The translations under genes were made by a program, and so were the position numbers. This document shows, one piece after another, positions 26,615 through 55,091 of a DNA stretch of 64,000 nt (position 1 is the stretch's first letter; every line of letters starts with the position of its first letter). The stretch covers positions 31,208 through 95,207 of IMG/VR virus record IMGVR_UViG_2690316068_000001; one strand, written 5' to 3'. The notes under the pieces were generated by a model. The model had not been told where the DNA came from, did no database searches, and saw only the letters and a program-made list of their open reading frames with translations. Origin of the DNA: a virus (taxonomy: Duplodnaviria; Heunggongvirae; Uroviricota; Caudoviricetes).

Positions 26615-26620
26615 ATTTAT

Positions 26621-28268: not shown

Positions 28269-28343
28269 ACTACAGGTGCCCACCAGCACATACAGAAAAT
28301 GATTGTTTCCACATCAAGGAGATTTTAATGTTTCACTGAAACA

Positions 28344-29343: not shown

Positions 29344-29700
29344 TTATGACCGTAAATTATTAGCGGATTTTAAGCCATATTCACCGTTGTAGAAATTACT
29401 CATGTTCCATTCATTAGGAAGTTCTTTTCTGTCCAATGTATAGTGGCGCACGATATAACGATCTTCATCTTCTTCGATGGACAGGCGGACATAGCCAATG
29501 TGAATCACCGATACGGGCGGTGTTCGTATTGCATAGATGTCGCGGAGATATACCGGCAGCTCGACAAATGCATCAGGTGCATCTGTGATGCTCGTTTTTT
29601 CACAGTATTCATATAACGCATCGTTGATATCGTTAAGAGATTCATGATCGTATATTTCCAGGTAATTACCGCGATCACGATGGTACTCGATTTTAGCCAT
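29344..29700 (-). CDS. hypothetical protein (gene 2 of two-gene minus-strand cassette)
   Basis: 118-aa ORF whose start abuts stop of upstream 194-aa ORF. Confidence 0.45.
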   Translation of the reverse strand: MAKIEYHRDRGNYLEIYDHESLNDINDALYEYCEKTSITDAPDAFVELPVYLRDIYAIRTPPVSVIHIGYVRLSIEEDEDRYIVRHYTLDRKELPNEWNMSNFYNGEYGLKSANNLRS

Positions 29701-30285
29701 TCAAAATCCCCTGTTATCGTTTTGCATTTCTCTAATCCGGTTCAGAACTACTTCGTGCTGGACTTGGATAGCGGCTTTTTCGTTTTCAAGCCGGGCAATA
29801 GACATCTCTAATTCTTTGCTGTACCAGGCGAGCTGGGCCAGGTTCATCCGGTTGTGGTCGAGAGTTGGAGACACTTCGACGCGATCCCTTTCTTCCTGCT
29901 TTAATGAGAAGAGATTTATCTCATCCCTTGAGGAAAATTCAGCAACAATTTCTTGTTGATGATCCGGTCGCTGCGGCATCCTCGCCAGTATAAATGGCGG
30001 TTCTTTTGAAAACATGAATGTCGGTTCAGACCGTGTTTTTACCCAGCTTGCCTGCTGTCTTTCGGCAAGTTCACAGGCTTCATCATAGTTATCTGCCAAA
30101 CAAAGCACGGATGGACGGTCCCACGCCCCACCATTCAGACAATAAACTACAATTTTCCCGTCAGGTTGTGTAACCCCATATGGATGGTCCCACCAGGCGT
30201 CCAGCTGAGCTTTAGAGCGTTTCTCGTTAGGAGTGCAGTCAAAATTTTTGGGCAATACAGGATCGAGAGGAATGCGATTAGGCAT
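29701..30285 (-). CDS. hypothetical protein (gene 1 of two-gene minus-strand cassette)
   Basis: 194-aa ORF divergent from humD promoter region; no motif recognised. Confidence 0.45.
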   Translation of the reverse strand: MPNRIPLDPVLPKNFDCTPNEKRSKAQLDAWWDHPYGVTQPDGKIVVYCLNGGAWDRPSVLCLADNYDEACELAERQQASWVKTRSEPTFMFSKEPPFILARMPQRPDHQQEIVAEFSSRDEINLFSLKQEERDRVEVSPTLDHNRMNLAQLAWYSKELEMSIARLENEKAAIQVQHEVVLNRIREMQNDNRGF

Positions 30286-30423
30286 AGCTAATTCCTTATT
30301 AACTGATTGGCAACGAGGTTACGCTGATCCGTTGGTGATGAATAGTAGCAAAGAGCACAAAATCATCAGCGGTGGTTGATGTACGTAACGCGTTTGCACC
30401 AAAGGTGTCTCTTTAATGTATAC

Positions 30424-30439
30424 TGTATAAATGAACAGT
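30424..30439 (+). promoter_or_regulatory. LexA (SOS) box
   Basis: CTGTATAAATGAACAG fits CTGT-N8-ACAG; 20 bp upstream of humD start. Confidence 0.75.
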
Positions 30440-30459
30440 ATTATTGAGGTGAAAACGCT

Positions 30460-30849
30460 ATGGGCTTCCCTTCTCCTGCGGCGGATTATGTTGAAAGCCG
30501 AATTTCTCTTGATCAGCAACTAATCAGGCATCCATCAGCAACCTACTTCATGCGGGCAGCTGATAGCCATCACCGTGAGGGAATATTGCAGGGTGCTTTG
30601 CTGGTGGTTGATTCCTCGCTTACTCCGGTTGATGGTTCTCTGCTTGTGTGCGCTATGGAGGGTGAATATCGCATAAAGAGATACAGGAAGTATCCGCGCC
30701 AGCACCTGGAGGATTTAAGCACCGGGAAGAAAGAGGCGTTACCAGTAGATGACGATGGATGCACGGGCAGTAATGCTGTTTTTGGTGTGATCACTCATGT
30801 CATCAATGATGCCCGAAGTGGGGAGTTTGATGATTGTCCGGTTATTTAA
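30460..30849 (+). CDS. humD: UmuD-like SOS mutagenesis protein homolog
   Basis: Close parallel to UmuD (FPSPAADYVE..RISLDQQLIRHPSATYFM...VFGVITHVIN); LexA box upstream. Confidence 0.8.
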   Translation: MGFPSPAADYVESRISLDQQLIRHPSATYFMRAADSHHREGILQGALLVVDSSLTPVDGSLLVCAMEGEYRIKRYRKYPRQHLEDLSTGKKEALPVDDDGCTGSNAVFGVITHVINDARSGEFDDCPVI

Positions 30850-30921
30850 GCTGCAAAGGGCTGGTGCTTTATGCCTGTGAGGTTTATAATTGTGTACACA
30901 TAACGAGTACACGAGGTGTTT

Positions 30922-31143
30922 ATGCAATCCATTAACTTCCGTACCGCGCGCGGCAACCTTTCTGAAGTGCTCAACAATGTTGAAGCCGGGGAAGAGGTTG
31001 AAATCACCCGCAGAGGCCGTGAGCCAGCAGTAATTGTCAGCAAGGCTACTTTCGAAGCCTACAAAAAAGCGGCGCTGGATGCTGAATTTGCATCCCTGTT
31101 TGACACCCTGGACTCCACCAACAAGGAACTGGTTAACCGATAA
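30922..31143 (+). CDS. phd: Phd antitoxin
   Basis: 73 aa [49 protein letters not shown]... matches P1 Phd as I recall it; ATGA overlap with doc. Confidence 0.9.
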
Positions 31144-31523
31144 TGAGGCATATATCACCGGAAGAACTTATTGCGCTTCATGATGCGAATATAAGCCGCT
31201 ACGGCGGCCTGCCTGGCATGTCAGATCCGGGCAGGGCAGAGGCCATTATCGGGAGAGTTCAGGCCAGAGTTGCCTACGAAGAGATCACCGACCTTTTCGA
31301 AGTCTCCGCCACCTACCTGGTGGCTACAGCGAGAGGGCATATATTCAATGATGCCAATAAGCGTACCGCGCTAAACAGCGCGCTGCTATTTCTACGCCGT
31401 AACGGGGTGCAGGTATTTGATTCACCTGAACTGGCAGACCTTACTGTAGGCGCTGCGACTGGCGAGATATCTGTATCTTCTGTCGCCGACACGTTACGTA
31501 GATTGTATGGTTCTGCGGAGTAG
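31143..31523 (+). CDS. doc: Doc toxin (Fic-family kinase)
   Basis: 126 aa with Fic motif [11 protein letters not shown]; phd-doc operon arrangement. Confidence 0.9.
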
Positions 31524-31707
31524 ATTAATGGCACGCAAATACAACAAATTGTCCCTTGAAGCGTTAAAGATGCTTCTTGATGGCGTGAGTCGCCGCAAGG
31601 TAAAGCAATACCTGGTTGGTAAGCAAATTGGAGTCAGGACCGCTATTGCTGTGTTATGCCGTCAGGAAATGGTTGTGCTTAAACAGAGAATGCCGGGCAG
31701 CAGATAA
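31507..31707 (+). CDS. small protein downstream of doc (PdcA-like)
   Basis: 66-aa ORF overlapping doc 3-prime end; by position only. Confidence 0.3.
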
Positions 31708-31734
31708 AGCCCAATCAGTGATTAAAGGTGTGAT

Positions 31735-32778
31735 GTGAAAGCCGTAATTACTCCCTTTGTACAGAAAGAGCTTGGCCTCGCCACGTTCAAAGTGGATCAG
31801 GAGGTCAGAAAACTGGTGGAGGCTGGCCGTAAATTTATCATGGAGCCGGTGCCGCGTGAGTTAATCGAGCACATGGAAGACGGCCTCGTTGTTACCGAGC
31901 AAACCATGGCAACAAATGAGGCGTTGCAGCCGTTTTTTAACAGCGATGAACTGTTTCGCCGTATTGGTGGAATTGACGCGCTGGTGGCGTGGTTGCGTAG
32001 GAAAGAGGGTCAATGCCAGGCCGCAGATCGTAGTTGGTGTGACAACCATATTGTCCACGCTGAACGAGACAATAGCGCGGTGTTGTTGTGCTGGCATCAC
32101 GATAACCATTACCGGATGCGTGGTTTTAATGAGCTGAAAGAAACGCTGCACAATAATCGCGTTAACTGGATACTGGATGTCGCCCGTCAGGAAATGGGCC
32201 TTTCAAATAGCCATGATTTAAGTATTCAGGAGCTGTGCTGGTGGGCTTTCATGCGCAACATGATGCACCTGATGCCGGAAGAAGTCTGCCGCATATCAAT
32301 AAATAAGATGAAGGCTACTCCGCAGGATAGCGGACCTCTGAAAGAGGCGGATATTCGCCCGTATGACGATCGCGCTACAGCATATGTTCAGATGATGGAA
32401 GAACGCGCCGCGCCGATGCGTGCAAAAGTATGCCCTGTGGATGTTGACTCCGACCCAGGTATGGCGCATTTCAAAATACCAAAACTTCAATCGCTAAAAT
32501 TGCCCGAGTACATGGACTTTGTGGCTTCCCGTCCATGCTGTGGCTGTGGAGCTGCGGGAGCTGGCGCTCACATTACGCCTTATATCGTTCGTCATAGTCG
32601 ATTATGCGCGCATGACATTTATGCTATTCCTCTGTGCCAGTCATGCCAGCGTGATATTGAGCGTGACCGCGATAATTGGGAGAAGACGCACGGTAGGCTG
32701 GCGATGCATCAACGATTGTTCTTTGATTACGCGCTTGGAGTCGGCGCTATCACAAGTCACTCGTCGAGCGTTAGATAA
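31735..32778 (+). CDS. hypothetical protein downstream of doc (PdcB-like), Cys-rich C-terminus
   Basis: 347 aa; GTG start with AAAGGTG RBS; C-terminal CCGCG...C..C.SCQ cysteine cluster. Confidence 0.4.
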
Positions 32779-32779
32779 A

Positions 32780-32796
32780 ATTGCTCTAATGTATTG
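32780..32796 (+). promoter_or_regulatory. C1 operator match upstream of lpa
   Basis: ATTGCTCTAATGTATTG; P1 lpa is known to be C1-controlled. Confidence 0.55.
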
Positions 32797-32866
32797 CTAT
32801 TTCTTTAATCGAGGGTATTATATTCCACGTTGATTAGTTGACATGGGCTAATCAGTAGGTGACAGG

Positions 32867-33319
32867 ATGTTACTTAACTGGCAGGGACGCCACTTCATGG
32901 AAATAAATCACTCACGAATAACATCGTACGAGATTGCGGATTACATGATCCGCACTAAATCTCTTCTATCAGCGAAAGAACTCGCAGCAATTCTTGAAAA
33001 GGAATACCCGCATCTGGATGTCGATAAGCGCGATGTTTATCTGCGCTTAAAGGCTATCGCTGTGTCTAAGTATTCGTCTGTTTTGATTGATGACAGTACA
33101 CGCCCACGTAGATTTCAGATCCACTCTCTGAATCCTGAATTCTTTCGCCGCAGCCGCGCTCCGCGCCGGTTTGATGAAAAACTCCAGAACGAACTCTATA
33201 TGACGCAGGACGAAAAGGAACGCCGGGAGCACCAGCCTTGGGTGATGGCGCGTCAACTTTTCAATAAGGTGGTCCGTCAGCACCGTCATTACGGTAATGC
33301 CACATCCGCACGTATCTGA
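32867..33319 (+). CDS. lpa: late promoter activator (Lpa, gene 10-like)
   Basis: 150-aa ORF immediately upstream of pacA with C1 operator upstream; assignment by conserved gene order. Confidence 0.55.
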   Translation: MLLNWQGRHFMEINHSRITSYEIADYMIRTKSLLSAKELAAILEKEYPHLDVDKRDVYLRLKAIAVSKYSSVLIDDSTRPRRFQIHSLNPEFFRRSRAPRRFDEKLQNELYMTQDEKERREHQPWVMARQLFNKVVRQHRHYGNATSARI

Positions 33320-33405
33320 TTGATTGCTTGCCCGTTCCGGGCCTTTTGACATGTGACTTTCGTTACCCTCGCGTCAAAAAGAGTTTTATACGAAAGGAAG
33401 CATAA

Positions 33406-34599
33406 GTGACCTGGGACGATCACAAGAAGAATTTTGCTCGCCTGGCGCGAGATGGTGGTTACACCATCGCACAATATGCCGCCGAGTTTAATCTCAACCC
33501 AAACACCGCACGTCGTTATCTCCGTGCATTCAAAGAAGACACCGGAACAGCGGACAGCCGTAAGCCAAATAAGCCTGTCAGAAAACCACTAAAAAGCATG
33601 ATCATTGATCACGCTAATGATCAACGTGCAGGTGATCACATTGTGGCTGAAATGGCTGAAAAACAAAGAGTTAATGCTGTTGTCAGTGCCGCAGTCGAGA
33701 ACGCGAAGCGCCAGAATAAGCGCATAAATGATCGTTCTGATGATCATGACGTGATCACCCGCGCCCACCGGACCTTACGTGATCGCCTGGAACGCGACAC
33801 CCTGGATGATGATGGTGAACGCTTTGAATTCGAAGCTGGCGATTACCTGATAGATAACGTTGAAGCGCGGAAGGCCGCGCGCGCTATGTTGCGTCGGTCC
33901 GGGGCTGATGTTCTGGAAACCACTCTTCTGGAAAAGTCTCTCTCTCATCTCCTTATGCTGGAGAACGCCAGGGATACGTGTATTCGCTTGGTTCAGGAAA
34001 TGCGCGATCAGCAAAAAGACGATGATGAAGGAACTCCGCCTGAATACCGTATCGCGAGCATGCTAAACAGCTGTTCCGCGCAGATAAGCAGCCTGATCAA
34101 CACCATTTACAGCATCCGGAATAACTATCGAAAAGAAAGCCGGGAGGCGGAAAAGCACGCTTTGTCTATGGGGCAAGCTGGCATTGTTAAGCTGGCATAC
34201 GAACGAAAGCGTGAAAACAACTGGTCAGTGCTGGAGGCAGCTGAATTCATCGAGGCGCATGGAGGGAAAGTACCGCCCCTGATGCTGGAGCAAATCAAAG
34301 CCGATCTGCGTGCTCCTAAGACCAATACCGATGATGAGGAAAGGCAAACAGCCGTCGGTGGCCCTTCTCTTGAAGATCTGGACAAAGTTGCGCGAGAACG
34401 GGCCGCCAACCGCCGCGCCGATGCCGCATTGTGGATTGAGCAGCGTAGGGAAGAAATCGCCGATATCGTTGATACAGGCGGTTATGGAGATGTTGATACT
34501 GAAGGTGTATCAAACGACCCATGGCTGGAACAAGACCTGGACGAAGACGAGGAGGAAGACGAAGAAGTTACCCGCAAGCTATACGGGGATGATGATTAA
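33406..34599 (+). CDS. pacA: terminase small/pac-recognition subunit
   Basis: 397 aa; contains the hexamer-repeat pac site within its coding sequence as in P1; acidic C-terminus. Confidence 0.8.
33599..33757 (+). other. pac: pac packaging site (4 + 3 TGATCA hexamers with Dam GATC sites)
   Basis: TGATCA at 33599, 33606, 33618, 33633 and TGATCG/TGATCA at 33729, 33741, 33752; about 159 bp span. Confidence 0.8.
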
Positions 34600-36083
34600 T
34601 GGCCAGAAGTTGCGTAACGGATCCACGTTGGCGCGAGCTGGTGGCGCTATATCGTTATGACTGGATTGCTGCCGCTGATGTTTTGTTCGGCAAAACACCT
34701 ACCTGGCAGCAGGATCTGATTATTGAGTCTGTGCAGGAACAGGGTAGCAAGACATCTGTTTCGTCTGGTCACGGTACCGGGAAATCAGACATGACTTCTA
34801 TCATGATCATGTTGTTCATAATCATGTATCCAGGTGCCCGTGCCATTATCGTTGCGAACAAAATTCAGCAGGTAATGACCGGTATATTCAAGTACATCAA
34901 GATAAACTGGGCTACTGCCACCAGCCGTTTCCCATGGCTTGCTGATTATTTTGTTCTGACAGAAACCGCTTTCTATGAGATTACTGGTAAAGGTGTATGG
35001 ACTGTAGTACCGAAGGGCTTTCGTCTGGGAAGTGAAGAAGCTCTCGCCGGTGAACACGCAGATCATCTTCTGTATATTATCGATGAAGCCTCCGGTGTCA
35101 GTGATAGAGCTTTCGGTATCATCACCGGTGCTCTTACCGGACAGGATAACCGCATCTTATTGCTGTCACAGCCTACACGCCCAAGCGGCTATTTCTACGA
35201 TACACACCATAAACTGGCCAAGCGTCCTGGTAACCCTGATGGCGTTTATACGGCGATCACGCTTAACAGTGAGGAATCACCGTTGGTAACGCCAGCATTT
35301 ATCAAAATGAAGCTGGCGGAGTACGGCGGGCGTGATAACCCTATGTACATGATTAAGGTACGCGGCCTATTCCCTAAATCACAGGATGGCTTCCTTCTTG
35401 GGCGTGATGAGGTTGAACGTGCAACGCGGCGGAAAGTCAAGATTGCAAAAGGATGGGGCTGGCTTGCATGTGTGGACGTTGCTGGTGGTACGGGACGGGA
35501 TAAGTCCGTTATCAATATCATGATGGTGTCCGGCCAGCGAAATAAACGCCGTGTAATCAACTATCGAATGCTGGAATACACAGACGTTACAGAAACGCAG
35601 CTTGCCGCCAAAATTTTCGCAGAATGTAATCCTGAGCGATTCCCCAATATCACCATAGCGATAGACGGCGATGGCCTGGGTAAAGCAACGGCGGATCTGA
35701 TGTACGAGTATTATGGTATTACCGTACAGCGTATACGCTGGGGTAAAAAGATGCATAGCCGTGAAGATAAGAGCCTGTACTTTGATAAACGTGCTTATGC
35801 CAACGTTCAAGCCGCAGAGGCCGTAAAATCTGGTCGTATGAGACTGGATAAGGGTAATGAAACTATTGAGGAAGCGTCGAAAATCCCTGTAGGGATTAAC
35901 TCCGCAGGTCAATGGAAGGTGATGAGTAAGGAGGATATGAAGAAAAAACTCAACCTGCACTCACCAGACCATTGGGATACATATTGTTTCGCTATGCTGG
36001 CTGATTATGTTCCCCAGGATGAAGTGCTTAGCGTCGAAGACGAAGCGCAGGTTGATGAAGCTCTGGCATGGCTTAATGAATAA
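34599..36083 (+). CDS. pacB: terminase large subunit
   Basis: 494 aa; ATG overlaps pacA stop; Walker [11 protein letters not shown]; position and length match P1 PacB. Confidence 0.8.
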
Positions 36084-36107
36084 CTCATTGACCATGCCGG
36101 ATAGAAA

Positions 36108-36959
36108 CTATTGCGCGCTTTCGGGGTTGTCGTTTACTGGCTGCCCCTTCTTAGTGTTACGGCTGCGCGTAACTGATGCGGCTGATTTGACCTTTTTCTC
36201 TTCGCGAGTGATGGCAATTTGTTTTTTTACATTTTCAATATCTGCCAGGCGATATATTTTTGCCTGCGGCCAGCGGTCGCAGATGATCGGTTCTATAGAG
36301 TCATAAAGGCTAAATTTTGCTTTCTCGAATTCACCGTTGATGATGATTCCATCACGGAGAGTTTCATCGCAGATAAACACACCACACAGCGGCACATGGT
36401 AACTAACTGATTTACCATCATTGTAGTTAGGGCTACTGGAAATGTAGTGGACGCGCAGCATTGTTTCGCTAAAGCCGTGTACACGCATACGGAATTTTTC
36501 ATCCTCCGGGTACTGCTTCATTAGCTCTTTTGTTGCTTCCAGGTTCTCTATGTATTTCGCACTGTGCTCATTGATCCCCGCGCTTTTCTGGATGCGAATG
36601 TCCTTATCAATCAGATGAATAATGCGGCCAGCGGTCATGTTGACGCTGTTCACAGCTTCTGTCTGATAAGTCGTAACCTTACGCACACCGCGAAGGATGT
36701 TAGGCACTGGATATAAAATAGTCTTTGGGATATTGAGGTCTGGGTACTGTTCCAGTTCCCGCGCCATTAAAGTCCATTTATCAATTTCAGCCTGAATGCT
36801 GTCCGTTTCTTTGAACGGCAGAACGACAACCGGGCGAACAGGACGACCGTCGCTGGCGGCATCAACGTGTTGGGCGCGTGCAACAGCTTTTTTTAGAAAG
36901 AGATCCCTGAAGCTGACGAACTCCTGGTACAGTTGTTCGCCGTAGACATAATTTATCAT
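36108..36959 (-). CDS. c1: C1 master repressor of lysogeny
   Basis: 283 aa (P1 C1 length); adjacent to coi and operator cluster; multiple C1 operators genome-wide. Confidence 0.8.
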   Translation of the reverse strand: MINYVYGEQLYQEFVSFRDLFLKKAVARAQHVDAASDGRPVRPVVVLPFKETDSIQAEIDKWTLMARELEQYPDLNIPKTILYPVPNILRGVRKVTTYQTEAVNSVNMTAGRIIHLIDKDIRIQKSAGINEHSAKYIENLEATKELMKQYPEDEKFRMRVHGFSETMLRVHYISSSPNYNDGKSVSYHVPLCGVFICDETLRDGIIINGEFEKAKFSLYDSIEPIICDRWPQAKIYRLADIENVKKQIAITREEKKVKSAASVTRSRNTKKGQPVNDNPESAQ

Positions 36960-37069
36960 TGATCCTCCTCCAGAATTGACATGGCCAACAACTCACAGCG
37001 GATTACACTGGGAGTTGTTGGCCACCATTATAGAAGGATCCAACGAAAATAATAGATTTATTAGTGCAT

Positions 37070-37279
37070 TTATTGTGAGTCTGGCTGGTTAGTGGCCATG
37101 AGATATTCGATTGTGTCAGTGAGATCATCCAGGTCGTCTTGGGTGATGCGGTACTCCTGATTGGATATCTTTGAGTAGTGTTCAGCAATGGCGCGGGCAG
37201 CGTCGGTTTCGGCGGGGTCTACAGATAAAGCGTTAGAGCAATGTCTAACGTCGTCGATGGTTGGTGGAATGAAAGCCAT
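37070..37279 (-). CDS. coi: C1 inactivator Coi
   Basis: 69-aa ORF immediately upstream of c1, same strand, as in P1. Confidence 0.7.
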   Translation of the reverse strand: MAFIPPTIDDVRHCSNALSVDPAETDAARAIAEHYSKISNQEYRITQDDLDDLTDTIEYLMATNQPDSQ

Positions 37280-37518
37280 AATTATGCCTCACTGTATTGA
37301 CAACACAGAGCCTGAAGCTCTGACCTACTGTTTCACCCATGATCCATGCTGGGGTAATCTAACAACATTGCGCTGTGTGTAAGATGAGCAATGCATAGCT
37401 GTAATGCCGTTGTATAAGGTTTCCCTGTTTGCTCATTTCCTTCTGAGCCGCTCTACAACGCTGAAGACACATTAAATAGTGAATCCAAAGTCGTATTACG
37501 AAACGGCGGCAAAACTAT

Positions 37519-37534
37519 AATTTATTAGAGCAAT
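37519..37534 (-). promoter_or_regulatory. C1 operator match (Op99-like cluster)
   Basis: Reverse complement ATTGCTCTAATAAATT; upstream of coi-c1. Confidence 0.6.
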
Positions 37535-37600
37535 TGTCAAACAACTATGAAAAACAATCCAGTTTTTGGCTGGTGGAGTGGGATTTTTCTCTCAAAATTT

Positions 37601-37617
37601 ATTGCTCTAATAATTCT
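37601..37617 (+). promoter_or_regulatory. C1 operator match (Op99-like cluster)
   Basis: ATTGCTCTAATAATTCT. Confidence 0.6.
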
Positions 37618-37660
37618 TGATTTTTATGCGCAGCTGGACGTAAACTCCTCTTCAGACCTA

Positions 37661-37694
37661 ATAACTTCGTATAGCATACATTATACGAAGTTAT
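37661..37694 (+). other. loxP: loxP site-specific recombination site
   Basis: Exact 34-bp ATAACTTCGTATA-GCATACAT-TATACGAAGTTAT. Confidence 0.98.
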
Positions 37695-40505: not shown

Positions 40506-41147
40506 ATGGATAAGAAAATATGCGTTGTTTCGATGAGCGTCGGCAAACCGGCGTCAATGACTGCTGCATGGATCAATAACGAGCTGATAATGGCTGAGCG
40601 GACCAGCTACCCTGAACGCCGCCGCGATATGGAACTCCAGCTGCTGCGCGAATTGCGAGAAAAAGAGGAAAAGGGTTTTATCGTGCTGGTGGAAGAGGAA
40701 AACAGCTTTATTACCGGTCGAGTTGGCCAGCGTGTAAGGTTGCGTGATCCCTTCATGAACGGCAGACCGGTACTGATTGAAGCAATGCAGATTTACAAGG
40801 AATTGGAACGCCAGAAAGCGATCAAGTTACCGCGCAAGGAATCCGGCAAATACATCCTTCACCAAAGCATCTTCGATTCCGAACACGATAAAAAAGGCGA
40901 TGAATTTTTCAACATCAACTGGAGCGAAATAACGACAGAACATGTTCTGTCGTTACTATGTTGCTTTGCGACGGAATACAACAACGTTGCCAGCGCCGAC
41001 TACATCAGGGCAATGGCTGGAGAAGTTGAGGCCCATCAGGAACCATCATTACTAAGTCCCCTGATTAACATAATTCGCGGAACTCAAACACTAACGCAAA
41101 AACAAGTGCCGCAAGGAGAATTAACAGGTAAACAGAACTATTTATAA
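40506..41147 (+). CDS. mat: particle maturation protein (Mat-like)
   Basis: ORF after ref; start taken at ATG with AGGGGG RBS (ORF-track upstream extension looks non-coding). Confidence 0.45.
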   Translation: MDKKICVVSMSVGKPASMTAAWINNELIMAERTSYPERRRDMELQLLRELREKEEKGFIVLVEEENSFITGRVGQRVRLRDPFMNGRPVLIEAMQIYKELERQKAIKLPRKESGKYILHQSIFDSEHDKKGDEFFNINWSEITTEHVLSLLCCFATEYNNVASADYIRAMAGEVEAHQEPSLLSPLINIIRGTQTLTQKQVPQGELTGKQNYL

Positions 41148-41250
41148 TAGTTACGTTAGGTAACATTATGGGTATGTTTCATTTTCATACCCATTGATTT
41201 CTAGCTTGATTTGTTATTATATGTAACAACACATTAATCATTTGAACTGG

Positions 41251-42381
41251 ATGTTAGTAATGGGCAGTGAAGTATATCAAAGCCAAAAATGCGAGCTTAA
41301 ATATTCGAAATCTCAAATAGAAAAAGCAGCCAGAAAAATTAGACATGGTTGTGAGGGCGCAGAGCGAGAAGAAGCAATTAAAATGATTCAAAATTTCCGC
41401 GAGCTTCATTTATATCCATTGATGCTAATGAAAAATCATCTTGATAGGGCTGCAAAAAAAGTTGATAAAGAGAATAAGATTATTGTTGCAAGACGCCTAA
41501 AAAGACTTAGCACAATAATTGATAAACTGGAGCGTCCAAGTCTTGACGGCGGCGCAACAAATAATGCAATAGCCCTTACTAGAATGCAGGATATTGGCGG
41601 ATGTAGAGCTATAGTTAGAAACATCGAACAACTAAAGAAACTAAAAGACCGACTAGTTAAAAGTCGCTCCAAGCATAAAATCTTAAAGGAATATGACTAT
41701 TTAACTCCAAAGCCAAGCGGATATAGTGGCATTCACCTTGCATATAGTTGTTTTGATGAAGAAAACGGTAACAATCCGTGGAGTAAAACTAAAATCGAAG
41801 TACAACTAAGAACAGAACTCCAACATGCTTGGGCAACAAGTCTGGAGATAATAGATACACTTGAAAATATTAAGCTGAAAACTTCTAATGAAGGTCACCC
41901 TGAGTGGAGAAGATTTTTTTATCTTTCTGGATGCCTAGTTGCTCATGATGAAGGTGCCTGTATTCTTGATGATGAAACCATCAAAAATTATCAAACAGAG
42001 CTTAAAACATTGGAGGAGGCTTTATCTGTTCGCTCAAAATTAAGTACATATACATTTGCAATGAAGCTGACATCAGATGCAAACCTAAAGAAAAGCCTGC
42101 CCAAAAACCATAATGGATTCTTTTTGGTGAGGATGAGAAACGCCATAACAAAAAATGGCAAGGATACTGGAAAGTTTCTTGTTTCTGTGAAACCTTTTAG
42201 GAAAAAAGAATCGGAACAAGCCCTCCAGGAACTTAATAAGGATGATGCGGATCCTGAAGTATTAATTGCGGTGCTGCTTGCCACTAACAACATTAAATCT
42301 CTTAAAAAGGCTTATCCTAACTATTTTGGGTCAACAAATCAGTTCGGGAGATTCCTTAGCAGACACATTGATACTGTGTAA
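41251..42381 (+). CDS. RelA/SpoT-like nucleotidyltransferase, candidate fused toxSAS toxin-antitoxin (CapRel-like)
   Basis: AT-rich gene occupying the P1 res/mod position; synthetase-domain motifs DIGGCRAIVRN, KPSGYSGIHLAY, EVQLRTELQHAWAT; about 373-376 aa from MLVMGSEV/MGSEV start; C-terminal about 100 aa extension. Confidence 0.7.
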   Translation: MLVMGSEVYQSQKCELKYSKSQIEKAARKIRHGCEGAEREEAIKMIQNFRELHLYPLMLMKNHLDRAAKKVDKENKIIVARRLKRLSTIIDKLERPSLDGGATNNAIALTRMQDIGGCRAIVRNIEQLKKLKDRLVKSRSKHKILKEYDYLTPKPSGYSGIHLAYSCFDEENGNNPWSKTKIEVQLRTELQHAWATSLEIIDTLENIKLKTSNEGHPEWRRFFYLSGCLVAHDEGACILDDETIKNYQTELKTLEEALSVRSKLSTYTFAMKLTSDANLKKSLPKNHNGFFLVRMRNAITKNGKDTGKFLVSVKPFRKKESEQALQELNKDDADPEVLIAVLLATNNIKSLKKAYPNYFGSTNQFGRFLSRHIDTV

Positions 42382-42418
42382 ATTCCTATGCCTGGCTTAG
42401 CCAGGCATAGCCAAAGAT

Positions 42419-42667
42419 TTAATCAGCATTCAGGAGCAATGCGTTATCTATGATGATCTGCTCCCATTCTTCGAATGCCCGGTCGCGGACGCCCTGGGGA
42501 ACGCTGTTAGTTTTGAAATCGACGACCGTACGCCATTTCCCGTCCGGACGGTACATGCGCAGAGCTTTACTTCCCCCTTCCCTGCGCACCTCAACGTTAT
42601 GCTTATCAGCAAACTCTTGTAATGCTCGTAGCGTCCCATGCTTTACTGTGTAGTATCGCTTTTTCAA
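42419..42667 (-). CDS. lxc: Lxc/Bof-like small regulator
   Basis: 82-aa ORF downstream of ulx-like gene; by position and size. Confidence 0.45.
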   Translation of the reverse strand: MKKRYYTVKHGTLRALQEFADKHNVEVRREGGSKALRMYRPDGKWRTVVDFKTNSVPQGVRDRAFEEWEQIIIDNALLLNAD

Positions 42668-43104
42668 GTTTTCTCTCCAGCCTGTGCCAAGGCTTCAACT
42701 TCCAAATCGTAAGACTCAAACTCATAGTCCTGGTCGTCAACTTCTTCAGGCACTGGCAGTAAATGCCAGGCTGAGTATATCTGACCATTATCAAAACGCT
42801 CCTGGCTGTAGAGCGTCGCGGCTATGAGTGTTAGCGCCGGGCGGTCATAACGGTAAATTTTGCGAACGTCACGGTCAACGAGACGACCGAAATTACCATA
42901 ACCGCGCTCCAGTAATAATTTTTTAATTTCCGGCCAGTATGGACCATAGCTGCGGTACAGGCGGGGATTTTTCAGTAATCGCCCGCGTAGCCCTGACAGG
43001 AAGAAATCAACGTATTCGTCTTCTGTCTTTCCTAACAACGCTGTACGGAGTACCGCCTCAAGATATGTTTTATTCGGTTTTATTGTATCAGATAGTGTGG
43101 CCAT
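42664..43104 (-). CDS. ulx: Ulx-like protein (upstream of lxc, downstream of darB)
   Basis: 146-aa ORF between darB and lxc on same strand. Confidence 0.45.
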   Translation of the reverse strand: MATLSDTIKPNKTYLEAVLRTALLGKTEDEYVDFFLSGLRGRLLKNPRLYRSYGPYWPEIKKLLLERGYGNFGRLVDRDVRKIYRYDRPALTLIAATLYSQERFDNGQIYSAWHLLPVPEEVDDQDYEFESYDLEVEALAQAGEKT

Positions 43105-43137
43105 ATTATGCGACGCCCGGCGAACCGGGCGCTCCTG

Positions 43138-46100
43138 TTATGCGTATTGTTGGATGACGGCCAGAACGTCCGCCACGTTGTGTTTTGTCTCGATAATCCA
43201 CCAGTTACCCGGGAAATCGCTGTTCTTCGCCTTCGCTGGCAGCCAGCGAGCGCCGAATTTCGCCTTGATTGCGTCTTTCGCACGGAAAAGAACGCCTTTC
43301 ATGCCTGAGGCTTCCTGAAGCCCAAATACCTCGCCAGCGGCGAATTTTGGTGCGTACATCATCTTCAGGTCGGCGGTGGATACGCGATAATTCAGACCAA
43401 GAGACTGAGCTATGCTGGTGGCATCACCCTGTATTGATGATAACTCTTCTTGTTTCTCGTTTCTGGCGGCAATCTCTTCCTCCGTGATGTTGCCAAGGGC
43501 CAGGTTTATCCGATCAGCGTCGGCCTGTTTCTCTTCATCGGTGCGCCCGGCAAGAACCGTGTTAATTCTCTGCAATATCTCCACATGATTCTTGCGCATG
43601 CTGAGCAATTCCGGCGTAACCTCGTTAAGATCCACCAGCCCAAGGATGGCAAGGTCGGAAAACATTGATACCAGGTTGTAGGTCATGCGATAGCTGAGTT
43701 GACCATAGGCTGATGGCAACTTCACCGCATCCATTTGATAGGCATCCATAAATTTAGAGCCGTCGTTTACGACATCCGCTATTGCAGGTGTGATTTTCCC
43801 TGTGGTGGCGGCCTCCCTGATTGCTGTTACCCACGATTGAGTCAGCGCGGCGACTGCATGATTCAGATTGGCTTCCCGTTCTGCTGCGATGCGCGCGCTT
43901 GCTGCGTCCATTGCCTGCTTGATCTCGGCTTTATTGCTGTAAATGCCAATGGTGCCAAACTGTGCTGTGGTGATCTCATAATCTGACGCCCGGAACTCAT
44001 TGGTACCGAAAATGGCATTGGTGACTTCAAGTTCAGAATCCCCGTTACGAGTAGCCCCCTGGCTTGTTTTCTCCGGCATTCTGGCGATCGCATCCGCTAT
44101 TTTCTCCTGAATTGCTTCAGGGGATAGCGTATCTCCGTATGACGCGATTACATCGCCATAATTGGAGCCAAACAGTTCAACCAGGAATGCTTCTGCCGAA
44201 CGGATCTGGCGGTTATTCCCTTCCGACATCATACCAAGCACCCATTTTGCAATTGACGACTTCAGCGCGCCGTCACGGCGATCCGGGTAAACCGCATGCT
44301 TCAGTGGGTCCGTATAGGTACCAACAAAATCAATGCTATAGCCTGACTCTGTAGTCTGAACGCCGTATGAGTCAGTGATTTTGATCATGCCGCGCTGCTG
44401 GAAACGGTAGAAATCGTCACAGGAAACGATGTCGTTAATCCCGGCGATGGAGACGCCACCACTGATTTTCTGCATAACAGCATCTTCATCGGGAGTTACA
44501 TCAACCTGTTTATCCAGCGTCTTCACATCCCAGTTACCCGATTTGGTGCCTTTGAAGGTAAAGATGATCTCCACGTCTGCGCGCTGGCTGTCGAAGTCCA
44601 GCGACTTAATGCGAACGATATCACCGGCACAATCATAGTATTGGCCTACACGCCATGAGCGATCGCCGATAACAAGGAACTCATTCGCATGGTTAACCAG
44701 ATCAGGATCAACATCCAGAATGCCTTTATTTATTGCATCCTCCACCAGCGGGCGCAGGCGTTTGATATCCGTCGCGGCCTTCTGAGTACGGTTCAATAAT
44801 TTCTCATAGCGGGAGATGGCCTGAGAGATATTAGCCTTGCGCTGAATGGCGCTTTTCAACGACGCGCGATACTGTGCTAACAACATACGGTCTGTGTGAT
44901 GGACGCTACCCCAGCGGGCTTTCCAGTCTGCGTTATCAGCTGCTTTGGCCATTACCGCCTGTTTGAATTTGGCGACGTCGGCGGTGGTCTTTTCAAGTTC
45001 CGCTTTGCTTCGCTCCAATTCAGCGGTAAGTACCTCCACATCCTCACCAGCTGCGTGCTGCGCCTTGATGTAGTTCTGAAGGTCGATAGTAGCCTGTTCT
45101 TTCTGGCGAGCGCGTTTCGCAGCTTTCGCCTTATCCATTTGAACCTGCATCATTGCCAGACGTTCGCCGTCATCCTTCGCGGTATACATCTGCATTTCGA
45201 TCATATCGTTGGCGTCGGCGTTCTCCATTTCTGACTTATCTGAACGGAGGATATCGGAGATCCAGCCTGCTTTACGCTTCAGCGTCTTCAGTCGGTATTC
45301 ATCGAAAGACCCCTTGCCGCAGTAGTAGTGAACGCGAACGCTTGCACGGTTGGAGCCAACTCGGGCACCGCGACCGTTTCGTTGCGCAATACTGGCTGGA
45401 GTCCATGGCAACGTCAGATGATGGATGTCAGTCGTTCCTCGATGCAGGTTGATACCCACCTCTGCCTTTTTGTTGCAGATGATGATCGGAGTCCGGCCCT
45501 CCTGGAAGTCGGCTGCAATCTTTTCCAGACCGCCCAACGACATTTCATTTTGCTGCGCGATATAGGCGTCATACAGAGCCATTTGCTCGTTGTATTTCGC
45601 TATCTGTGCATCTGTTGGTTCATCCGGTAACTCTTTCGGCGGTTTAACCGCTTTCAGTTTCTTACCGGTTTTACCTGCCTCGGCAACCGTCTGAGCATTC
45701 AGTATCCCCACCTTTGAAGGTTCAAGGTTAAGAGCATTGCAGATAATGCGCTTGAGCTTCTGGTGCTGCGTTTTTTCATCGGTGAAGATGATTTGCTTAC
45801 CTTCCGGGAAAAACTCCTTCAGCGTGGCAATCAGCTTCGCGTATTTGGGCGTAACGGGGTGAGTTACGGTCTGTTCGTCAATGCCAAACCTGGCCAGGCG
45901 CTTATTCACTTCCTGCTCGAACGCTTCCGGAACCTGCAACTGAATAAACTCGCCCTTATCTATCAGGGAGTATTGCGATTGCTGCGTGATTGAATCATCA
46001 CTGTCGTCGTCTTCGCTGGTGGCTTGTTTAGGCAAACTGTCCGCCAGCTGCTGCACCGCATCGGCGTACTCCGGCAGGAAACGATAGGTGATCCGGCGAT

Positions 46101-49100
46101 AGTACAGGTCCATGTCAGTACATACGCGGTCCATATCCCTGATTATTGAGAAGATCGGACGGGCTTTCTCGTGCTCAATCACGCCGTCTTCATTGACCGA
46201 GGTCGTTACGCCATTGTTGGCTTTGGCCGCCGCTTCCGCCTGCTGACGCAATTCTTCATACGCCGCCAGTTGTTCTTCAGTAAGTGGTGCATCCTGCTGG
46301 TGTTCGTCCAGCTCCGGGATCTCCACGGTATCCTTAACGTCTTCCGCCGTTTTAAGCGTTACCCAGCGATGGAATATACCGCGCAGCGCATCAAGGTTTT
46401 CAAAGCCCACCAGCGCCATTTTTTCTTCAACTTCACCGCTAATTTTCTGTACCGTTTCCAGCCTGGTCTTGCCGAAGAATTTAACGAAGTCATCAGGACC
46501 GTAGATCCCCATGTTCTGCCAGTATTCCTTCGGCAGAACATGAGAAAGCATGTTGTATGCATCGATCGGGGTGTTAACGACTGGCGTTGCCGTCAGGAGA
46601 ACCGGTCCGCGCCCGCCATTCTTTTTCATCAAGTACGCGTTTTTGATTGCCATATCTCGCGCCGATTGCGCCACCGCGCTGGTGGGCAGATAGGCCAGCT
46701 GTGACGCTTCGCGACCATTTTTATAGCTATTGCGGTAGTTGTGGCCTTCGTCAGCAATCACGCTGTCGAAGCCCATATCCTCAAAGTACGGATACTTCTC
46801 TGCTTTTTCGGTACCGGTATCTGAATACTCCGACAATACCCGGCGACGCGCCGCCTCTTTGCGGTGGGAGTCGGAGTCCATTGCGCTGGCTACGCGCCCG
46901 GCGGCAACGAAGTCATAAAGCATGTCTTGTGCATGCTCATCTACGGTGTCATCACGTAGCGGAATGCGGGCGTATTGTTCTTTGGTAAACACGACTGCAC
47001 GGTAATTTGAGTGCGGGATCGCGTTCATCCGCGCCGTGATAGTGGCTTCATCTGCCAGCTTAAGAGCATCGCGCATAACTGGAGTGCCATCAGTACCAAG
47101 AACAGGTTTACCGTTCTCATTGAGCACCGGCACCTGGCGAATCTGATCGCCATCCATCAGCACATCAAGACCGACGAACAAGTAGTTACTGAATGCCTCT
47201 TCACTCAGGAATTCTTTTGCTTCGTAATACCAATTTTCCAGCACTGATTTAGGCACTACATACGCAGTACGGGTGGAGCGACCGTTCTCATAGTTGAACG
47301 CCTCAAGCGCCAGCGCGGTCGTGGTTTTACCCAGCCCGGTGCCGAAGCCCAGGATGCCGCGCCCATCTTCGGACAGTCGGCGCACCTCGCTATTCTGGTA
47401 ATCAAATGGCTGGCGCTTACCGCTTAATCCCTTCAACCCAAGCGGATCGCCAGAGTGTTCATACGGGATATTGCTATTGAACACATCGTTGTATTTGGCA
47501 ACCAGCTCATCGTAGCGATCGTGCGTCTTGATCCACTTATTGAACTGGTCCTCAAGCAGTGCCATCTGCTCGCGGTAGCCGTTCGCCGTCGCGCTATCTT
47601 TGCCACCGATACGCGCACCATTGAGATACTTTTCCAGCTGTGCCGGGAACCCGGTCGCGTTTTCACCTGATTTACGGTCCCACTCGTAGCGAATCTCACC
47701 TGTTTCTTTATCCTTGCGCTGGACGACACCGTATCGGTGCCCGACGAACAGACCATCACCACCGTGATAGGTGTCAGAAACCATTTCGTCGCCTTCCAGC
47801 TGCACTGACTGCACATAGCGCAGATCCGGATAGCCGTTTTCCTGCAAAAATTCCAGAATGACGGAACGGTCGAACCAACGGCTATTGAGCTTAAACCGGA
47901 TATTCTCTGCTGGCGTCTTGATGCGCTTCTCTTCGATAGCTGCCAGCTGATTAAGGACGTTGTTCTTTACTGGACCGTCGGGGAGTGTGGCGAGGAATTC
48001 CTGTTTTGGAGCCACTATCTCGTTAATGTCGCCGCTGGTGGCGCGGGCGAACGGAACAATCCCGCCATACGGTGAAACCGCAATACCAGGGGTGCTGGCC
48101 AATAAATTAAGCAACTCTTCATCACTGGCTGGCAGTTCGCCGGTAAACGCAAGGCGGAAATCATCGAGCTGGATTGGATCGCGGGTGAGATCGCTATAGA
48201 GATAACGCAGGGTGTCCTGATAGCTGGTGGAGTCATAACTTGCGCTGGAATCATGCGTAACCAGCTTCCCTGTCAGCTCGTCAGAAATAGTGCCATCCAG
48301 CTTAATTGCACCACGGAAAGCAAACCAGGCGCGCGCACCGCTCCCCGACAATTTCGCTATCGGACCGCGACCGGGGTTACCAAAACGGTCAATCTCTGCC
48401 TGCAAACGGGATACCAGAGAAAGGCGCTGCTGTTCGATTTGTTCAGCACTATGCCCGGCGGCCTTCATGTCCTGATATTCAATTAACATCCGGCCAATCA
48501 TCGCCCCGCGATACAAGCGTTCACGGTATTTTTCAGGCTGGCTGTTAATCCAGTCCACCAGCTGCACCATATCGTCGCTGATTGATGTGGTGTACTTATC
48601 GCGGACATTTGCCATCTGGGTAAATGTCATGCCGAGACGGCCTTCTGTTGTAGTCAGGTTACGCTGAAGAGCCTCCCAGCTATCCGCGCCATAACTGGCA
48701 GCATCGATCTTAAGTTCCTTCCCGGCATCAGCTTCAATCCAGCGACCACCAGCATATTTTTGCCATACGCCATTAATCAGGCGCATTTCCCCTTCACCAA
48801 CAACGTCTGCGGTCGGTGACGGTTCAGCCATATCGAGCAAAGACCAGTCGATACGGCTTTCGAAACGATGAATCAGCTTCGCTTTAAGAGCCTGGTTATC
48901 AATCTGACCGTCGGCACGAACCTCAATACGCCCCTGGAAGCCCTTTTCCTGGGTGCCATGAACAAACCGGCGGCCGTCCTTTTCAAACCACTTGCCAGAA
49001 ATAAACGTTGGCCAAAGCACATTTGCCGATTCGAGAGTGCTTTCATCCACCAGGGGGATTTTCTCAGCCATCTCTGCCGGATGTTTGCGCATCAGCACCA

Positions 49101-49905
49101 CATCAACGACTGTACTGGTCCCGTTTGCGTCAAAAGTACCGGTAGGCAAGCGGTGAGCGCCAAGAAATTCAGCTTTACGGGATAAGCGCAGGCGTAACCG
49201 CTTCATGTTTGAACCTGAAACAATGGACGGCGGCACAATCACACACATGAATCCGCCAGGTTTTATCTTGTCCAGCATGCGGAGCATGAAGTAAGACCCC
49301 ATGTCCGTTTCTTCTGCGTAAGGCTTATCGATGTTGCGTGTGTTATCACGACCGCCGAACGGAACGTTACCCACAACATGGTCGAATGAATCGTTAGGCG
49401 TGTTTATAGCCAGCTGTTCGAACGGGGAAATCTGTACGCTGTCTTCCGGGTGTAACAACTGGTTTATACGACCGGAAACACTGCTGATCTCAGTCGCGGT
49501 CATCACCGTACCAACCGGTTTTGTCTCATTAAAAACGCCGGTTCCCGCCGATGGTTCCAGAGTGTTACCTACGTCCGCGCCGTAGAGCTTCATGATCTCC
49601 CAGACACCTTCAGCGATAGGCTTTGGTGTGTAATATTCGGAGACGGACCCGCCAATGCCGCCTTCACCGGTGTACCCAGCCAGGATCTGGCGCTGTTCAT
49701 CTGTCAGTGTCGCGCCGTCCACCAGCGAATTAAGCAAATCTATCGCCTTCTGATTCGCCTCACGGCGCAGTCGGTCATAGCTTTTGCCTTCCACCTTTTC
49801 CACGCCGTATTTAATCGGCGCTCGGTGAGATGTTATTGCCCTAATGTATTTCAATATTTCGCTGACACTTGAACAGCGAAACACCCCCATAGATAGCTTG
49901 TTCAT
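43138..49905 (-). CDS. darB: DarB antirestriction protein (methyltransferase + SF2 helicase fusion)
   Basis: 2255 aa; N-terminal MTase-like motifs (LEPSAGTGVF, GNVPFGG); helicase Walker A GFGTGLGKTT and DEGH box; matches P1 DarB size and position. Confidence 0.85.
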   Translation of the reverse strand: MNKLSMGVFRCSSVSEILKYIRAITSHRAPIKYGVEKVEGKSYDRLRREANQKAIDLLNSLVDGATLTDEQRQILAGYTGEGGIGGSVSEYYTPKPIAEGVWEIMKLYGADVGNTLEPSAGTGVFNETKPVGTVMTATEISSVSGRINQLLHPEDSVQISPFEQLAINTPNDSFDHVVGNVPFGGRDNTRNIDKPYAEETDMGSYFMLRMLDKIKPGGFMCVIVPPSIVSGSNMKRLRLRLSRKAEFLGAHRLPTGTFDANGTSTVVDVVLMRKHPAEMAEKIPLVDESTLESANVLWPTFISGKWFEKDGRRFVHGTQEKGFQGRIEVRADGQIDNQALKAKLIHRFESRIDWSLLDMAEPSPTADVVGEGEMRLINGVWQKYAGGRWIEADAGKELKIDAASYGADSWEALQRNLTTTEGRLGMTFTQMANVRDKYTTSISDDMVQLVDWINSQPEKYRERLYRGAMIGRMLIEYQDMKAAGHSAEQIEQQRLSLVSRLQAEIDRFGNPGRGPIAKLSGSGARAWFAFRGAIKLDGTISDELTGKLVTHDSSASYDSTSYQDTLRYLYSDLTRDPIQLDDFRLAFTGELPASDEELLNLLASTPGIAVSPYGGIVPFARATSGDINEIVAPKQEFLATLPDGPVKNNVLNQLAAIEEKRIKTPAENIRFKLNSRWFDRSVILEFLQENGYPDLRYVQSVQLEGDEMVSDTYHGGDGLFVGHRYGVVQRKDKETGEIRYEWDRKSGENATGFPAQLEKYLNGARIGGKDSATANGYREQMALLEDQFNKWIKTHDRYDELVAKYNDVFNSNIPYEHSGDPLGLKGLSGKRQPFDYQNSEVRRLSEDGRGILGFGTGLGKTTTALALEAFNYENGRSTRTAYVVPKSVLENWYYEAKEFLSEEAFSNYLFVGLDVLMDGDQIRQVPVLNENGKPVLGTDGTPVMRDALKLADEATITARMNAIPHSNYRAVVFTKEQYARIPLRDDTVDEHAQDMLYDFVAAGRVASAMDSDSHRKEAARRRVLSEYSDTGTEKAEKYPYFEDMGFDSVIADEGHNYRNSYKNGREASQLAYLPTSAVAQSARDMAIKNAYLMKKNGGRGPVLLTATPVVNTPIDAYNMLSHVLPKEYWQNMGIYGPDDFVKFFGKTRLETVQKISGEVEEKMALVGFENLDALRGIFHRWVTLKTAEDVKDTVEIPELDEHQQDAPLTEEQLAAYEELRQQAEAAAKANNGVTTSVNEDGVIEHEKARPIFSIIRDMDRVCTDMDLYYRRITYRFLPEYADAVQQLADSLPKQATSEDDDSDDSITQQSQYSLIDKGEFIQLQVPEAFEQEVNKRLARFGIDEQTVTHPVTPKYAKLIATLKEFFPEGKQIIFTDEKTQHQKLKRIICNALNLEPSKVGILNAQTVAEAGKTGKKLKAVKPPKELPDEPTDAQIAKYNEQMALYDAYIAQQNEMSLGGLEKIAADFQEGRTPIIICNKKAEVGINLHRGTTDIHHLTLPWTPASIAQRNGRGARVGSNRASVRVHYYCGKGSFDEYRLKTLKRKAGWISDILRSDKSEMENADANDMIEMQMYTAKDDGERLAMMQVQMDKAKAAKRARQKEQATIDLQNYIKAQHAAGEDVEVLTAELERSKAELEKTTADVAKFKQAVMAKAADNADWKARWGSVHHTDRMLLAQYRASLKSAIQRKANISQAISRYEKLLNRTQKAATDIKRLRPLVEDAINKGILDVDPDLVNHANEFLVIGDRSWRVGQYYDCAGDIVRIKSLDFDSQRADVEIIFTFKGTKSGNWDVKTLDKQVDVTPDEDAVMQKISGGVSIAGINDIVSCDDFYRFQQRGMIKITDSYGVQTTESGYSIDFVGTYTDPLKHAVYPDRRDGALKSSIAKWVLGMMSEGNNRQIRSAEAFLVELFGSNYGDVIASYGDTLSPEAIQEKIADAIARMPEKTSQGATRNGDSELEVTNAIFGTNEFRASDYEITTAQFGTIGIYSNKAEIKQAMDAASARIAAEREANLNHAVAALTQSWVTAIREAATTGKITPAIADVVNDGSKFMDAYQMDAVKLPSAYGQLSYRMTYNLVSMFSDLAILGLVDLNEVTPELLSMRKNHVEILQRINTVLAGRTDEEKQADADRINLALGNITEEEIAARNEKQEELSSIQGDATSIAQSLGLNYRVSTADLKMMYAPKFAAGEVFGLQEASGMKGVLFRAKDAIKAKFGARWLPAKAKNSDFPGNWWIIETKHNVADVLAVIQQYA

Positions 49906-54210: not shown

Positions 54211-54407
54211 ATGTGTAAAAAACGACTGAAAGAAAAGCGGTGGTCCAGACGCCGACAAAAGCACGAACTCGCAAACAAACGCCAAAGTTGGCAATGGCAC
54301 ACGCTTTTCACGAAAAGAACACCCCGAGATATTGCGTTCGCTGGTGGGAAAACATTCCTGACCCACCTGAAGGCGCAATACATCAGGTTTTAAGCAGAGG
54401 AAAGACT

Positions 54408-55085: not shown

Positions 55086-55091
55086 TTTAAC

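Follow-up and report, generated by a model that had tools for sequence, protein, structure and literature searches.

The region between mat and lxc, which in phage P1 carries the res and mod genes of the EcoP1I type III restriction-modification (R-M) system, raises a simple question in the virus genome studied here: what has taken the place of the restriction genes, and is it new? We addressed this question in a stretch of 64,000 nucleotides (hereafter the window; positions 31,208 to 95,207 of IMG/VR record IMGVR_UViG_2690316068_000001). From the sequence alone, an initial annotation had proposed that the slot is filled by one AT-rich open reading frame (ORF) encoding a fused toxin-antitoxin of the CapRel type, and had allowed that this may be the CapRel prototype itself rather than something new. 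Taking all lines of evidence together, the explanation that we hold to be almost certain is that a P1-like phage-plasmid holds a copy of CapRel-SJ46 in its mat-lxc slot, as an accessory gene.

Replacement of the P1 restriction genes

The backbone is 94-99% identical to P1 over most of the window, which holds cre, c8, ref, mat, lxc, ulx, darB, prt and pro in P1 order together with three P1 tRNAs. Judged by its sequence, the window has the backbone of a P1-like phage-plasmid (Punavirus). The closest record that we found was the Escherichia coli plasmid NZ_CP148447.1 (IncY, 93 kb, from chicken), with 99.6% identity over 24 kb. An Rfam scan of the whole window at gathering thresholds returned the three P1 tRNAs and no other hit, near capRel or elsewhere.

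The immediate surroundings of the gene also follow the P1 gene order: cra, cre, c8, ref and mat precede it, and lxc, ulx and darB come after it. The left flank is formed by mat (maturation control; 40506-41147, plus strand), for which we use the start given in the SJ46 and RefSeq annotations, the P1 annotation giving a longer form. On the right lies lxc (modulator of the C1 repressor; 42419-42667, minus strand) and, beyond it on the same strand, ulx (42664-43104) and an intact darB (43138-49905), a single ORF of 2,255 amino acids.

Between these flanks, blastn against P1 (NC_005856) delimits a segment of 1,270 bp (41148-42417). P1 homology runs up to window 41147 (P1 3468), where mat ends with its stop codon, and picks up again at window 42418 (P1 9749), a base short of the lxc stop. 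Thus P1 3469-9748, a stretch of 6.3 kb with res, mod and an IS5 element, is replaced by 1,270 bp in the window, and nothing in 41148-42417 has homology to this res/mod region. Set against the P1 annotation, these breakpoints place the gene in the slot to which it had initially been assigned.

The segment is AT-rich, as had also been proposed, with 36.7% GC compared to 47.7% in the left flank, 51.9% in the right flank and 48.3% in the window as a whole. Indeed, among all 1,270-bp stretches of the 64-kb window (mean GC 0.483, standard deviation 0.031) it is the lowest in GC, about 3.7 standard deviations under the mean. Its edges are not sharp, however, since identity to P1 decays gradually inside the flanking genes: within mat it is 0.82-0.90 over the last ~200 bp and 0.67 in the last 48 bp, and just past 42418 it is 0.92-0.94 over the first 100 bp. 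A search for direct or inverted repeats flanking the segment gave no matches beyond those of chance size. We therefore rejected a mobile element as the origin of the segment; the missing flanking repeats and the gradual decay of identity suggest instead that it was exchanged into the backbone by homologous recombination inside mat and lxc, rather than by transposition or site-specific insertion.

Identity and domain structure of the gene

A mechanical ORF search gives a plus-strand frame at 41242-42381 with a TTG start and 379 amino acids, and the ATG at 41260, where GenBank, RefSeq and the crystal structures begin the protein, gives a coding sequence of 373 amino acids (41260-42381, stop codon TAA at 42379-42381); both ends of the 373-379 range first given for the gene are thereby accounted for. 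This is the one forward ORF in the segment, with intergenic stretches of 112 bp and 37 bp on its two sides and no separate antitoxin gene, so that capRel in the window is a single-gene system. Minus-strand frames of up to 106 stop-free codons do occur inside capRel, but we treated them as chance openings, because they shrink or vanish in an allele of 74% amino acid identity (see below).

The translated protein is 100% identical to that in PDB entry 7ZTB_A (373/373 amino acids) and to that in 9ERV_A (across 372-373 amino acids). A crystal structure for CapRel-SJ46 was reported in 2022 in a paper whose text gives the identifier 7ZTB (PMC9712102), and its complex with the phage protein Gp54 followed in 2024, under 9ERV in the text (PMC11578894). 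At the DNA level, 41100-42450 matches Salmonella phage SJ46 (KU760857 / NC_031129) with 100% identity, and not a single difference from SJ46 was found across window 40951-43200, which takes in the upstream region and the hairpin 3' of the gene. The counterpart in SJ46, gene J46_0058, is labelled 'RelA/SpoT family protein' and is likewise 100% identical in DNA. SJ46 is a P1-like phage of the genus Punavirus, which bears out the statement in the initial annotation that the prototype came from a P1-like Salmonella prophage. On these comparisons the gene is an exact copy of CapRel-SJ46, already known and not new. A frame-changing sequencing error in capRel is unlikely, because about 21 identical independent records exist.

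The domain structure agrees with this identity. Pfam RelA_SpoT (PF04607) matches the protein over nucleotides 41494-41838 with an E-value of 3.1e-13 and 50.4 bits, against a curated cut-off of 27, and the three RelA/SpoT motifs originally read from the translation (DIGGCRAIVRN, KPSGYSGIHLAY and EVQLRTELQHAWAT) are all present within this match. The PADLOC candidate model PDC-S33 matches capRel from end to end (residues 17-376, E = 5e-87). The division into N-terminal two thirds and about 100 C-terminal residues, also part of the first description, corresponds to the published split of CapRel-SJ46 at residues 1-272 and 273-373 (PMC9712102). Transferred to the window, and together with the Pfam match, this split places the N-terminal toxic region with its toxSYNTH pyrophosphokinase domain at 41260-42075 and the C-terminal fused antitoxin and phage sensor, made up of a pseudo-zinc-finger and C-terminal helices, at 42076-42378, both on the plus strand (PMC9712102, PMC11578894). 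Residues 273-373 are identical to those in 7ZTB and 9ERV. The G-loop tyrosine Y155 is encoded at 41722-41724 and the YXXY motif, Y352-P-N-Y355, at 42313-42324; a check of the translation found A77, R79, R116, Y155, L280, L307, V338, L339, A341, A351, Y352 and Y355 all in place.

Toxicity, triggers and rival functions

What this protein does has been worked out experimentally for CapRel-SJ46. CapRel, named for the Rel of Cyanobacteria, Actinobacteria and Proteobacteria and not for the capsid, is classed among the translation-inhibiting toxSAS (PMC9712102). Expression of residues 1-272 by themselves is toxic, and supplying residues 273-373 in trans relieves this toxicity; the latter adopt a zinc-finger-like fold that lacks the cysteines, hence a pseudo-zinc-finger domain (pseudo-ZFD) (PMC9712102). 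A closed state is predicted in which the YXXY motif sits in the ATP site, which is lined by R79 and R116, and mutation of the YXXY interface makes the protein constitutively toxic (PMC9712102). Toxin activity is directed at translation and not at transcription, through pyrophosphorylation of tRNA, and Y155A abolishes defence (PMC9712102). The initial reading of the gene as a tRNA-pyrophosphorylating toxSAS of the CapRel type with an autoinhibitory C-terminus is thus established in print for the identical protein.

Several database names, among them 'GTP pyrophosphokinase' and '(p)ppGpp synthetase', imply by contrast a small alarmone synthetase (SAS) that makes (p)ppGpp or (pp)pApp. The RelA/SpoT fold is indeed common to capRel and the housekeeping SAS enzymes, and the protein has matches to the structures of RelP, RelQ, YwaC and YjbM, but these are weak (E-values of 2e-7 to 2e-4) and confined to residues ~65-200; they cover the catalytic core only, leave the C-terminal third of capRel without a counterpart and do not amount to a close full-length relationship. 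Given that the identical protein pyrophosphorylates tRNA and blocks translation but not transcription (PMC9712102), and that CapRel is grouped with the translation-inhibiting toxSAS, we give this function next to no credence.

The second element of the first description, sensing of phage capsid protein, held up with a minor correction. Escape mutants of phage SECphi27 carry substitutions in its major capsid protein Gp57 (L114P, I115F); Gp57 binds CapRel-SJ46 directly, as measured by isothermal titration calorimetry (ITC), and is necessary and sufficient for tRNA pyrophosphorylation and the block of translation, with L280 and L307 of CapRel-SJ46 required for capsid binding (PMC9712102). The capsid is not the sole trigger, however, since Gp54 of phage Bas11, an unrelated protein of 66 amino acids, binds the same domain and triggers directly (PMC11578894). 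CapRel-SJ46 is triggered in infections by SECphi27, Bas5, Bas8, Bas10 and Bas11, and it also reduces plaquing by T2, T4, T6 and RB69 (PMC9712102, PMC11578894). Defence is seen at low multiplicity of infection (MOI) only, a sign that it works by abortive infection (PMC9712102).

We also considered whether the carrier's own capsid could act as a trigger. With a Gp57 sequence in which L114 and I115 were confirmed, BLASTP found no significant similarity between SECphi27 Gp57 and the P1 major head protein gp23 (E = 2), and tblastn against all frames of the window or of P1 gave no significant match (E >= 0.2). Nothing encoded in the window resembles Gp57 in sequence, and at the level of sequence this candidate was rejected.

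That a gene derived from toxin-antitoxin systems sits on a low-copy plasmid prophage might suggest that its main role is plasmid addiction, stabilising the phage-plasmid by post-segregational killing, rather than phage defence; P1-type elements do use a toxin-antitoxin module, phd-doc, for that purpose. Yet the window already has the phd-doc region, as 30699-37677 aligns to the P1 stretch with phd and doc. In CapRel-SJ46, moreover, toxin and antitoxin form one polypeptide that is not cleaved and whose level stays constant during infection, and the full-length protein is non-toxic in the absence of a phage trigger (PMC9712102). Since a single uncleaved polypeptide at a stable level offers no differential decay by which cells could be killed after plasmid loss, we consider a primary role in addiction exceedingly improbable and phage defence the far better account.

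Signals around capRel and native expression

The published constructs bear directly on expression. The 112-bp intergenic region 5' of capRel (41148-41259, plus strand) corresponds to the 'native promoter' in the published pBR322-capRel-SJ46 construct, the native part of the published gBlock TZ-1 beginning at window 41148, and it is 100% identical to SJ46. Within it lies a 7-bp inverted repeat (GGGTATG...CATACCC, at about 41170-41192), but our search of the fragment for a sigma-70 promoter yielded no convincing candidate, the best match being just 8/12. A much better match (TTAACA-16-TATAAT, 11/12) is predicted at 41121-41148 on the plus strand, across the mat stop codon and the junction with the segment. 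The -10 box of this site draws on the last codon of mat (TTA in the window, TTT in P1), on the stop codon and on the base that opens the segment. At the same site P1 reads TTAACT...TTTTAA and the 74% allele TTAACA...TTTTAA; because both have TTTTAA, a good -10 box is specific to the SJ46-type junction. The predicted junction promoter (41121-41148) was left out of the published constructs.

Downstream, a hairpin with perfect 12-nt arms (42386-42410) between the convergent capRel and lxc is a candidate bidirectional terminator. Its RNA fold has an energy of -20.3 kcal/mol (z = -4.8 against shuffled sequences). A scan for an intrinsic terminator after capRel did not flag this hairpin, which lacks a T-run.

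These signals could be taken to mean that capRel is silent cargo in this element, either unexpressed in the lysogen or expressed solely alongside mat, and that it would then give no native protection: the 112-bp region has no strong sigma-70 match, the sole strong promoter-like site sits in the end of mat, and mat in P1 is annotated as under a C1 operator and a late promoter. Against this, the same 112 bp with capRel, placed in promoter-less pBR322 or in single copy on the chromosome, gave 10- to 10,000-fold protection (PMC9712102, PMC11578894). Those assays used E. coli MG1655 with pBR322 or a chromosomal single copy, not the native phage-plasmid (PMC9712102, PMC11578894). The ORF is also intact and identical in about 21 plasmids from three genera, which argues for a maintained function. 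We regard a silent gene as highly unlikely, and we infer that capRel is probably expressed and protective in this phage-plasmid.

Other cargos of the slot and related systems

EcoP1I of P1 occupies the same locus in the P1 gene order and is likewise a defence cargo of a plasmid prophage, but its two genes run on the opposite strand, take up 6.3 kb with IS5 and have no sequence homology to capRel, and EcoP1I cleaves DNA whereas CapRel shuts off translation in an abortive manner.

A second CapRel allele, WP_000526244.1 (375 amino acids), is present in about 52 plasmids of PLSDB. At the two loci that we checked, plasmid NZ_CP103660.1 and phage vB_EcoM-673R5 (where the gene is annotated in two pieces), it lies in the mat-lxc slot with the same orientation and the same fused architecture as CapRel-SJ46. 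It keeps the G-loop, R79, R116 and the YPNY motif. Its amino acid identity to capRel of the window is 74% overall, with 77% over residues 1-270 and 65% over residues 271-373, whereas the DNA of its locus is 60-70% identical to the window in the segment and 95-100% in the flanks; the sequence of its 3' hairpin differs from that of the window. We found no published experiment on this allele. Its identification as the published CapRel-EcHT was rejected, as the upstream region of the EcHT gBlock is unrelated, and the N-terminus of CapRel-EcHT also looked different when compared by eye in text obtained by optical character recognition (OCR).

In another plasmid, NZ_CP033848.1, a 434-amino-acid SIR2 family protein occupies the mat-lxc slot. 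The cargos that we have seen there are hence a type III R-M system, CapRel-SJ46, the 74%-identical CapRel allele and a SIR2 protein.

Outside the slot, CapRel-Ebc, CapRel-Kp and CapRel-EcHT have the same fused toxSYNTH and pseudo-ZFD, with autoinhibition released by a phage protein, but their sensor domains, triggers and genomic contexts differ from those of CapRel-SJ46. CapRel-Ebc protects against T7, sensing Gp0.4 together with FtsZ (PMC13423816). The toxin domains of PhRel/ATphRel, from mycobacteriophage Phrann, and of FaRel2/ATfaRel2 are homologous to that of capRel, although in these systems the antitoxin is a separate gene whereas in capRel it is fused in one ORF. FaRel2 and PhRel2 pyrophosphorylate tRNA by the same chemistry as CapRel-SJ46, and the prophage-encoded PhRel/ATphRel of Phrann excludes superinfecting phages (PMC9712102).

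Carriers of the identical gene

SJ46 and the window have the mat-lxc slot, the protein and the DNA of 40951-43200 in common; the difference lies in the carrier alone. In SJ46 a Tn1721-type transposon is inserted upstream of mat, whereas cre-c8-ref-mat are uninterrupted in the window; darB is annotated in two pieces in SJ46 but is a single ORF of 2,255 amino acids in the window; and a comparison over 24 kb requires a gap of ~8.6 kb in the window. We therefore rejected the possibility that the window, which lacks the SJ46 transposon and has an intact darB, is SJ46 itself.

Among PLSDB plasmids, about 21 from E. coli, Salmonella and Klebsiella carry an identical capRel, as do 14 of the 5,426 complete E. 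coli genomes. Counting short partial matches as well, 52 of the 53 places at which capRel matches in complete E. coli genomes are on plasmids. Identical copies in E. coli prophages were already noted in 2022 (PMC9712102), and a survey of 2025 counts CapRel as one of the defence systems commonly found in E. coli P1-like phage-plasmids (bioRxiv 10.1101/2025.09.12.675607).

Implications for P1-like phage-plasmids

Given that the capRel coding sequence and the 112 bp upstream of it are 100% identical to SJ46, the mechanism published for CapRel-SJ46 may be expected to operate in the host of this element. The N-terminal toxSYNTH domain would be kept off by the C-terminal pseudo-zinc-finger, with the YXXY motif docked into the ATP site, until the C-terminal domain is bound by freshly synthesised major capsid protein or by Bas11 Gp54, which would keep the enzyme in its open state. 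The open enzyme would pyrophosphorylate tRNAs, translation would stop and the infection would abort. The benefit to the phage-plasmid would lie in the exclusion of competing phages by capRel, a gene probably brought into the backbone by homologous recombination within mat and lxc.

A wider reading can be put forward only tentatively, namely that mat-lxc is a one-slot defence locus exchanged by recombination, with at least four cargos, in which native capRel-SJ46 is expressed from the junction promoter or together with mat; we consider this combination possible but rather unlikely. If the junction promoter or co-transcription with mat were used, the level and timing of native capRel expression could differ from those published.

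As a discovery the gene carries little weight, as it is the prototype CapRel-SJ46 itself, with structure, triggers and mechanism published in 2022 and 2024. What is novel, and loosely so, is limited to the alternative cargos of the mat-lxc slot, the 74% allele and the predicted junction promoter. The result nevertheless has some bearing on how such elements are read, since the labels 'GTP pyrophosphokinase', '(p)ppGpp synthetase' and 'RelA/SpoT domain-containing protein' mask a known defence system. Several different backbones of the P1 type carry identical capRel in E. coli, Salmonella and Klebsiella, other defence cargo is found in the same slot of related plasmids, and the common CapRel allele with its diverged sensor domain would provide a ready comparison for studies of trigger specificity.

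Differences from the SJ46 and P1 backbones

In the window, darB is a single intact ORF of 2,255 aa (43138-49905, minus strand), whereas the record of Salmonella phage SJ46, the source of CapRel-SJ46, has two separate CDSs (8039-13351 of the SJ46 locus). SJ46 also has a Tn1721-type transposon upstream of mat, which the window lacks. For the homology comparison with P1, two P1 records were stitched together as the reference, and no match to this stitched sequence was found for 9 kb of the window (21698-30698). This stretch sits just before the phd-doc region and encodes about 15 small ORFs, labelled in related plasmids as ead/Ea22-like, DUF551, S24 peptidase and hypothetical proteins. Low-GC patches occur within it near 26050 and at 28100-28300, and the stretch shows 99.9% identity to CP027320.1 of E. 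coli and NZ_CP117572.1 of E. albertii. Smaller stretches of the window without P1 homology lie at 3773-4198 (inside the dmt region by alignment coordinates), 9512-9799, 54412-55095 and 62904-63259. The stretch at 54412-55095 falls in an ORF of 281 aa after ssb (54240-55085), at whose position a DUF2829 protein is annotated in a related plasmid.

Sequence elements around capRel

Inside mat, we found a perfect 26-bp palindrome (TAACGACAGAACA/TGTTCTGTCGTTA; 40930-40955). It is perfect only in the window and the closest plasmid, NZ_CP148447.1; SJ46 is one base off, at 40950, and the P1 counterpart is imperfect. Spanning the mat stop codon and the junction with the AT-rich capRel segment is a near-consensus sigma-70 promoter-like site on the plus strand (41121-41148; TTAACA-16-TATAAT, an 11/12 match). 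The TATAAT -10 box occurs only in the SJ46-type junction, TTTTAA being found instead in P1 and in a second CapRel allele, WP_000526244.1. Since the published 'native promoter' construct of capRel begins at 41148, this site was left out of it. At the other end, capRel and lxc converge, and between them lies a hairpin with perfect 12-nt arms (42386-42410; -20.3 kcal/mol, z = -4.8), which has no T-run on either strand. The equivalent place of the second allele also has a hairpin, but of another sequence and with A/T runs.

Alternative contents of the mat-lxc slot

The second CapRel allele (375 aa) shares 74% amino acid identity with CapRel-SJ46, its C-terminal sensor (65%) being less similar than the N-terminal part (77%). 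It is distinct from the published CapRel-EcHT, and no experiments on the second allele were found. About 52 plasmids in PLSDB carry this allele, and its mat-lxc position was seen in the loci of NZ_CP103660.1 (3001-4128) and phage vB_EcoM-673R5 (3001-4100). In the phage record it is annotated in two pieces, which may reflect a frameshift. In another P1-like plasmid, NZ_CP033848.1, the slot encodes a SIR2 family protein of 434 aa (5198-6502 of that locus). The mat-lxc slot thus holds at least four alternative defence cargos, namely the type III restriction-modification system of P1, two CapRel alleles and SIR2.
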